Shown here piece after piece: positions 27,644 to 28,276 of a stretch of 60,430 nt of DNA. Origin of the DNA: Chloroflexota bacterium (lineage in GTDB: Bacteria > Chloroflexota > Dormibacteria > CF-121); the NCBI GenBank assembly GCA_005889345.1, contig VBFR01000230.1, forward strand, positions 1 to 60,430, given 5' to 3'. The stretch's first letter is position 1. Every line of letters begins with the position of its first letter. The notes under the pieces are model-generated. The model saw nothing but the letters and a program-made list of their open reading frames with translations. It was not told the DNA's origin and did not search any database. The position numbers were made by a program, and so were the translations under genes.

Positions 27644-28276
27644 ATGCCCACCCCCGTCCGGATTTACTCCGACTACGTCTGACCCTTCTGCTACATCGAC
27701 TCGGTCGGAGTCGCGCGACTGGAGCGGGAATACGACGTCGAGATCGAGTGGGTGCCATTCGAGCTGCACCCGGAGATCCCGCCGGAGGGCCGCCTTCGCG
27801 AGGAGGTCCTCCCCGCCGCCTACATGGCGCGGGCCCAGGAAGGGGTGAACCGGCTAGCCGCAACCGTCGGGCTGACCCTGAGGTTGCACGAGCGGCTGAT
27901 CAACTCTCGGCCCGCCCTGCAGGCGGCCGAATTCGCCCGAGAGCAGGGTCGTTTCGAGGCGATGCACGAGGAACTCATGAAGGCGTACTGGGACGAGGGG
28001 CGCGACGTTTCCGACATGGCTGTCCTGCGGGACATCGCGGCGCGCGCCGGCGTCGATATCGACGGCATGGAGGTGGCCGTCACGGAGGATCGCTTCGGCG
28101 ACTACCTCGACGCACGTCGAAGTGAAGCGGAAGACCTTGGCATCAACGGCATCCCGGCCCACGTCATCGCCGACCGCTATCTCGTGATGGGCGCGCAGCC
28201 CTACGACTTGTTCGAGCGCGTAATGGCAAAGATCGCAGTCCCGCGGCGGGATGCTCCTGCAAGGAGTGAGTCCTAG
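27644..28276 (+). CDS. DsbA/FrnE-family thioredoxin-fold protein, probable selenoprotein (UxxC)
   Basis: ATG at 27644 gives MPTPVRIYSDYV-TGA(27680-27682)-PFCYIDSVGVARLEREYDVEIEWVPFELHPE, in frame with the tracked ORF 27752..28276 (GINGIP, GAQPY). The TGA sits at the first Cys of the family D-x-x-C-P-x-C motif. Confidence 0.82.
27697..27713 (+). promoter_or_regulatory. Candidate bacterial SECIS hairpin
   Basis: CGACTC/GAGTCG stem with loop GGTCG, whose G-initiated loop begins 20 nt after the UGA, matching the general bacterial SECIS geometry. Confidence 0.6.

Follow-up and report, generated by a model that had tools for sequence, protein, structure and literature searches.

Selenoproteins of the DsbA type have been recognized for some time: a 'DsbA-like protein' (COG2761) with a UxxC motif, in which U denotes selenocysteine (Sec), was predicted as a new selenoprotein family from nine Sargasso Sea sequences (Zhang, Fomenko & Gladyshev 2005; PMC1088965). 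Among sequenced bacteria such proteins were recorded in only a few, including Anaeromyxobacter dehalogenans, Desulfovibrio desulfuricans and Desulfotomaculum reducens (PMC1794560), and a 2026 review of prokaryotic selenoproteomes lists the family as 'DsbA-like protein form 1, PF01323, UxxC' (PMC13188914). Here we describe a gene at positions 27644-28276 (plus strand) of a 60,430-nucleotide stretch of DNA from a Chloroflexota bacterium of the Dormibacteria lineage (contig VBFR01000230.1; this whole stretch is hereafter the window), which a preliminary description had proposed to be a hidden selenoprotein of the DsbA/FrnE family, remarking correctly that DsbA-like selenoproteins already exist. 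We regard it as very probable that the locus is an intact selenoprotein gene, in which Sec replaces the first Cys of the CxxC active site of a DsbA/FrnE-family thiol-disulfide oxidoreductase. It represents neither a new mechanism nor a new selenoprotein family; in the literature library searched, no paper joins 'Dormibacter' and 'selenocysteine'.

The frame comprises 210 codons followed by a TAG stop (28274-28276) and opens with an ATG (27644-27646) that lies in a column of ATG or GTG in 29 aligned orthologues, the point at which conservation at the protein level begins. It is interrupted by a single TGA, codon 13 (27680-27682), and when this codon is translated as Sec the N-terminus reads MPTPVRIYSDYV-U-PFC-YIDSVGV, giving the motif U13-P-F-C16. 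In alignments the UGA takes the place of the first Cys of CxxC, the nucleophile, and the resolving residue, Cys16 (TGC, 27689-27691), occupies an invariant column and is the only Cys of the protein. The ATG, the solitary in-frame TGA and the DYV-U-PFC reading are all as the preliminary description gave them. The match to the Pfam DSBA domain (PF01323), which scores 111.9 bits where 25.6 is the cut-off (E=4e-32), covers residues 5-193 of 210 and hence crosses the UGA. The best sequence matches among solved structures are FrnE of Deinococcus radiodurans (5cnw; phmmer E=1e-22, residues 5-205) and SCO1869 of Streptomyces coelicolor (3gl5), and the FrnE motif WSDIACPWCYIG aligns on YSDYV-U-PFCYID such that the UGA falls on the first Cys of CPWC.

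In public annotation the gene begins downstream of this codon. A comparison against a collection of 5.8 billion proteins, in which the best 120 matches were examined, recovered entries of 167-193 aa with query coverage of 78-92%, the one longer entry (206 aa) having an internal GTG start (VPFELHPE…), and the active site is absent from all of them. Two false starts recur: an ATC at codon 18 (27695-27697, plus strand), which yields a 193-aa product (MDSVGV...) and is both the window's own call and that of NCBI 'DsbA family protein' entries; and a GTG (27752-27754, plus strand), which yields the 174-aa product (VPFELHPE...) of public entries and of the list of open reading frames (ORFs), as noted previously. 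NCBIfam holds no model capturing the gene, its best being NF041057 at 42 bits against a cut-off of 190, and public annotation therefore truncates it; the truncation expected of standard pipelines by the preliminary description is seen in every one of these 120 matches. Such calls could be taken at face value, with the UGA a genuine stop, the functional product starting at ATC 27695 or GTG 27752, and the 12 upstream codons either untranslated or specifying a micropeptide. The alternative starts do exist and the best 120 public entries are all called in this manner; however, public calls stop at TGA by default and hence are not independent evidence for termination. Moreover, the truncated products would be without β1, without the active-site motif and, wholly or in part, without α1, all of them elements of a fold modelled with a predicted local distance difference test (pLDDT) score of 96, and the Pfam and FrnE alignments pass straight through the UGA. 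The first 12 codons, together with U-P-F-C, are conserved as protein across genera and families: they hold their amino acids and vary synonymously (P2 and S9 are each specified by four codons), which indicates that codons 1-12 are translated. We therefore consider a genuine stop very improbable.

A read-through search of 61 related genomes turned up about 39 that carry the orthologue with a single TGA, at 44-88% identity: 30 full-length members of the same family (65-88%), six from family f3, which belongs to the same class (44-49%), and three fragmentary ones. The TGA stands in the identical column in each of the 30 same-family orthologues, where a conserved start codon, ATG or GTG, precedes it, and it occupies this codon in the six family-f3 orthologues too. 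Farther away within the class, homologues with 29-40% identity carry TGC at this position, in the context SD[IV][VA]-C-P[WY]C-YIGKRR, and TGC or TGT was found at this codon in 60 unique distant homologues. The alternation between Cys and TGA that the preliminary description suggested looking for is thus present, with TGA fixed in about 39 genomes and Cys farther out. These patterns bear directly on the idea that the gene is a pseudogene, inactivated by a nonsense mutation or by a sequencing or assembly error. In favor of this idea, the source genome (G000), a metagenome-assembled genome (MAG) of 3.23 Mb that is 88% complete, is fragmented into 306 contigs; yet the same TGA recurs in about 39 genomes that were assembled independently, as well as in numerous contigs from metagenomes, and the frame is intact on both sides of it in a pattern indicative of purifying selection. 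With the TGA common to so many relatives and Cys in its place in distant homologues, a strain-specific mutation or sequencing error was rejected, and we accord this explanation next to no probability.

The taxonomic spread of the two forms was judged on 80 named loci from GTDB species genomes, a set in which some Dormibacterota MAGs bear the label 'Chloroflexi bacterium CF_xx'. Sec forms are seen in Dormibacterota, Chloroflexota/Dehalococcoidia, Thermomicrobiales, Nitrospirota and Archangium violaceum Cb vi76, and Cys forms in Bacillota, Pseudomonadota, Rubrobacter and others. In a maximum-likelihood tree 31 of the 33 Sec rows fall into one subfamily, within which three Cys rows are nested, and at least 3-4 changes between Sec and Cys are demanded overall. 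The preliminary description had also pointed to the residues YIDSVGV as a departure from the usual YIG-basic pattern, such as would be expected if RNA structure constrains them; the departure is there, but it is partly a trait of the subfamily, as Cys members of the same subfamily differ from YIGKRR too.

Several loci recovered along the way merit mention in their own right. The cultured myxobacterium Archangium violaceum Cb vi76 (L079; NZ_JPMI01000005.1) encodes a protein of this subfamily in its Sec form (SDFV-U-PWCYVGLVEV), with the TGA at locus position 1525 and a hairpin, CGGCCUC-GUG-GAGGUCG, that differs in sequence but is equally spaced from the UGA; as this organism is in culture it offers a route to experimental proof, the predicted Sec-bearing peptide being SDFV-U-PWCYVGLVEVEK. 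A genome of the same genus as the source carries a second FrnE-type gene (L057; G002:C88:794-2002) with a TGA at the catalytic Cys (locus position 328). Its context, SDIV-U-PWCYIGKRRFE, is of the classical type, its nearest relatives all have Cys, and its downstream hairpin is a different one (CAAAC-GACG-GUUUG), so that it looks like an independent conversion of Cys to Sec. Finally, the labels of several soil-MAG records (L071, L074 and L078) clash with the tree, with genes attributed, for instance, to 'Candidatus Nitrosopolaris sp.' (an archaeal label) or 'Candidatus Eisenbacteria' lying inside Dormibacterota clades; these bins are probably mislabelled or mixed.

Immediately 3' of the UGA the transcript can form the hairpin CGACUC-GGUCG-GAGUCG (27697-27713, plus strand), in which a stem pairing 27697-27702 with 27708-27713 encloses a loop at 27703-27707. 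The published model of the bacterial selenocysteine insertion sequence (SECIS) allows 3-9 nt for the apical loop, 4-16 bp for the upper stem and 16-37 nt between UGA and loop, requires a minimum free energy (MFE) of -7.5 kcal/mol or lower, and places a G among the first two loop nucleotides, as a rule with G or U after it (PMC13188914). The window hairpin, whose loop (GGUCG) is 5 nt and whose stem is 6 bp long, has a spacing of 20 nt and a folding energy of -8.2 to -8.7 kcal/mol, all inside these bounds, and its placement, with the loop 20 nt on from the UGA, is that previously described. Of 51 unique Sec forms, 45 have a hairpin whose stem is 5 bp or longer, whose loop begins at +24/25 and whose first two loop nucleotides include a G; among 60 Cys forms the number is 8.

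Covariation was assessed on an ungapped alignment of 42 Sec forms. Across a helix of seven pairs 98.3% of cells are paired, as opposed to 24-55% in controls that shift the partner by 1-3 columns. At pair 22-30 the combinations U-A, U-G, C-G and G-C are seen, and at pair 23-29 C-G, U-G, U-A and A-U. The helix contains 12 compensatory cells, and the observed values were reached in none of 500 shuffles; the relatives are MAGs except for a few cultured carriers of Cys or Sec forms, and their kinship influences these covariation counts as well as the E-values. RNAalifold independently returned the same helix. Codon usage points the same way: among 40 unique Dormibacterota orthologues the stem codons for Ile18 (AUC), Asp19 (GAC) and Val23 (GUC) are invariant and the loop codon for Val21 is variable, and mean codon entropy over codons 18-23 is 0.21 bits versus 1.09 bits in 74 other conserved degenerate columns (Mann-Whitney p=9e-4). 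An extended lower stem around the apical hairpin (27683-27727, plus strand), weakly supported although it occurs in the MFE folds of many orthologues, is not claimed, with 78.8% of its cells paired and little covariation. The MFE of the whole region differs modestly between Sec and Cys forms, in a comparison confounded by GC content and relatedness and less clean than the count of hairpins by position, and an Rfam search over 27500-27900 at E<=10 found no SECIS or other relevant family, the one match being a chance hit of 11 bits.

The source genome encodes the complete pathway for Sec, all four components scoring above their curated cut-offs. The gene for tRNA-Sec (selC) was detected at 58 bits, above the Rfam cut-off, and ARAGORN reads it as SeC(tca), with the anticodon UCA. 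The selA gene is split over two contig ends (G000:C3:4145-5092 and G000:C51:9013-9813; 435 and 325 bits), and the piece on C51 lies directly upstream of selB (C51:7115-8971, 339 bits); given this arrangement, contigs C3 and C51 probably join, and selA and selB probably form an operon across the junction. The selD gene (G000:C279:41725-42648, 398 bits) itself has one TGA, specifying Sec at the catalytic GAG-U-ACK. The search for these four genes in the same genome thus bears out the earlier suggestion that this lineage uses Sec. Other probable selenoprotein genes, as judged by a single in-frame TGA in each, are two coding for FdhA-like molybdopterin oxidoreductases (C210:884-1678 and C132:8459-9202) and one for a SelW/Rdx-like protein (C290:2073-2285). 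Beyond the source genome, selA was found in 50 of the 61 related genomes and in 36 of the 39 with the TGA form. The TGA form occurs in none of the seven genomes of families f2 and f4 that have no selA, two of which carry the Cys homologue. Together these distributions are consistent with Sec use that appears to be general across this largely uncultured soil class, for which we found no published report to that effect.

The presence of this pathway also helps in weighing whether the UGA might be read through as something other than Sec, whether because a near-cognate or suppressor tRNA places Trp or Cys there or because UGA has been reassigned throughout the lineage. The identity of an inserted residue is not readable from sequence alone, and the homologues tolerate Cys at this position. 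Against this, TGA is a common true stop, terminating 13 of the 35 long ORFs in the window with high GC content at third codon positions (GC3), and selA and selB have no internal stops; there is hence no general reassignment of UGA, and a genome-wide version of this explanation was rejected. Non-Sec decoding would likewise leave unaccounted for a complete Sec pathway, a selected SECIS-type hairpin that is canonically spaced and missing from most Cys forms, and the absence of the TGA form from the selA-less genomes of families f2 and f4. We accordingly place very little credence in this possibility and favor Sec as the residue encoded by codon 13.

A number of observations weigh against reading the locus as a selenoprotein gene and temper the confidence placed in it. 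Insertion of Sec at this UGA is a prediction from comparative data. The hairpin is short and many of the sequences compared are related; since much of the stem is invariant, the covariation is carried by two pairs only. When the 61-nt region is folded by itself, its stability does not exceed that of shuffled sequences (z=+0.76), a thermodynamic result that is uninformative, for which reason the hairpin was judged by sequence comparison. The Sec forms of Dehalococcoidia have no clean contiguous hairpin in this register. Lastly, selA went undetected in three of the genomes that carry the TGA form; these are MAGs of 75-93% completeness.

To place the active site in its structural setting we examined an AlphaFold2 model built from a 30-sequence alignment (pLDDT 96.3; predicted template modelling score, pTM, 0.90). 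In this model β1 is formed by residues 3-9 and α1 by residues 14-29, so that residue 13 caps α1, the canonical position of the active site in the thioredoxin fold. Foldseek returned D. radiodurans FrnE as the top match, with a template modelling (TM) score of 0.81 and scores of 0.79-0.84 to 5co3, 5cnw, 5cp1 and 5xwh; classical DsbA structures were found only as distant matches (TM 0.54-0.67). Seven columns are invariant across Sec and Cys homologues, namely D10, U/C13, P14, C16, G136, P171 and G183. Pro171 (codon 28154-28156, plus strand) belongs to a G-I-P motif that corresponds to the cis-Pro loop of the thioredoxin fold; it is invariant in 30 Sec and Cys homologues and aligns with the GVP of FrnE. 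Besides Sec13 the 210-aa protein has Cys16 as its one Cys, and a Cys-bearing C-terminal tail is absent. A signal peptide is also absent, the N-terminal MPTPVRIYSDYV leading straight into β1, which argues for a cytoplasmic location. The model and these sequence features point to a product that is a cytoplasmic, tail-less, FrnE-like oxidoreductase.

In light of these observations, the following course of events may be proposed. The AUG at 27644 would serve as the start of translation, the mRNA probably being leaderless or nearly so. SelA would make Sec-tRNA from selenophosphate supplied by SelD, and the complex SelB·GTP·Sec-tRNA(Sec, UCA) would bind the loop of the hairpin at 27697-27713 and decode the UGA of codon 13 as Sec; hairpin binding by SelB and the decoding of UGA as Sec are the established steps of the bacterial Sec pathway. 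In the folded protein the active site U13-P-F-C16 would cap α1 and face the cis-Pro171 loop. Sec13 would act as the nucleophile that attacks substrate disulfides, and Cys16 would resolve the intermediate via a selenenylsulfide, formed in the course of disulfide exchange, isomerisation or reduction.

The selenoprotein gene is arranged head-to-head with hrcA, coding for the heat-shock repressor (26546-27586, minus strand; Pfam PF01628, E=3e-57), which is followed by grpE (25912-26529, minus strand; PF01025, E=1.5e-48). The 57-nt spacer between the divergent genes contains a CIRCE-like HrcA operator (controlling inverted repeat of chaperone expression), TTGGCAGTC-N9-GAGTGCTAA, at 27589-27615, with 2 mismatches to the CIRCE consensus. 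The operator, at the same offset, and the divergent hrcA are kept in every family-f1 orthologue with enough upstream flank. Outside family f1, synteny with hrcA was not found at loci L074-L077, examined with 1.5-kb flanks, the flanks of L051-L056 being 300 nt only. On the minus strand, a promoter-like TGGGCA-18-TACAAT (27621-27650), probably that of hrcA, overlaps the first codons of the selenoprotein gene; it is the only sigma-70-like site in 27500-28400, where 0.1 would be expected by chance. On the plus strand, a -10-like hexamer TATTCT (27632-27637), a candidate promoter for a leaderless mRNA, lies 6 nt before the ATG, just where the preliminary description placed it; a sigma-70 scan of 27500-28400 scored no plus-strand promoter there. 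Most aligned orthologues have a TAnnnT hexamer 6-7 nt ahead of the start codon, and the window gene lacks a purine-rich Shine-Dalgarno sequence, a combination that fits a leaderless mRNA. The conservation of this hexamer is nonetheless ambiguous because its bases also make up the spacer of the hrcA promoter.

The conserved operator and synteny suggest that hrcA and the selenoprotein gene may be under shared control by HrcA. A fuller scenario, which we put forward tentatively and hold to be rather doubtful, is that in family f1 the selenoprotein is translated from a leaderless mRNA whose promoter is interleaved with that of hrcA on the opposite strand, and that through the shared CIRCE element it is a member of the HrcA heat-shock regulon. 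In this scenario the SECIS would also need to recruit SelB no farther than about 55-70 nt from a 5' end devoid of structure. Two further features of the surroundings can be recorded. The listed ORF of 425 aa at 26405-27682 (plus strand) is an antisense shadow of hrcA in high-GC DNA and not a gene; it runs into the first 12 codons of the selenoprotein gene and terminates at the Sec TGA, and could mislead gene callers. On the other side lies a convergent gene (28273-29340, minus strand) for a 355-aa protein with a C-terminal ArsR-type helix-turn-helix domain (PF01022), whose stop overlaps the TAG of the selenoprotein gene in the tetranucleotide CTAG, and which accompanies the orthologue in some relatives only.

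The significance of the locus lies mainly in annotation and in the selenium biology of an uncultured soil phylum. Recognition of the gene corrects a systematic error by which public entries throughout a widespread soil lineage have been left without their active site. It would also add Dormibacterota to the selenium-using bacteria, with at least five TGA-bearing genes in the genome (selD, the two FdhA-like genes, the SelW-like gene and the FrnE-like gene). In addition, the homologues gathered here provide a well-sampled comparative collection, drawn from several phyla, of about 50 distinct SECIS sequences that belong to a single family.

Among proteins of known structure, the window protein is set apart from periplasmic DsbA of the E. 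coli type, in that it has no export signal and is not of the CPHC type. Like SCO1869 and D. radiodurans FrnE (5cnw, 5co3, 5cp1 and 5xwh), the latter a cytoplasmic disulfide oxidoreductase, it carries an N-terminal SD-x-x-[C/U]-P-x-C-Y motif and a cis-Pro loop of the form G-[IV]-P, and has no signal peptide. It differs from FrnE in having Sec for the first Cys, with UPFC in place of CPWC, in lacking the YIGKRR segment and in ending at residue 210. The FrnE chain has 260 residues, with the phmmer alignment stopping at chain residue 226, and the C-terminal tail of D. radiodurans FrnE bears an additional pair of Cys residues, CxxxxC, which serves the active site; the window protein has no such Cys-bearing tail. 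In the maximum-likelihood tree it belongs to a separate, well-supported subfamily, with the YIGKRR clade (C-P-W-C-Y-I-G-K-R-R) lying beyond a branch with support of 100/100. The window protein may thus work like FrnE, yet it stands outside the classical FrnE clade.

Similarly, the hairpin resembles the SECIS of E. coli fdhF in its location within the coding region just 3' of the UGA, its short upper stem and its small apical loop starting with G-G-U. The upper stem of the E. coli element carries a bulged U, whereas that of the window hairpin does not, and the primary sequence of the latter is specific to its lineage. The closest described counterpart of the gene as a whole is the DsbA-like selenoprotein form 1, from which it is distinguished by its origin in a soil Dormibacterota branch and by the lack of an NCBIfam model that captures it. 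When set beside the descriptions of the published exemplars, the window gene presents every feature by which form 1 is recognized at the sequence level: the same Pfam domain, a UxxC motif with Sec in first position, widespread Cys homologues and a SECIS with a G-containing loop just after the UGA.

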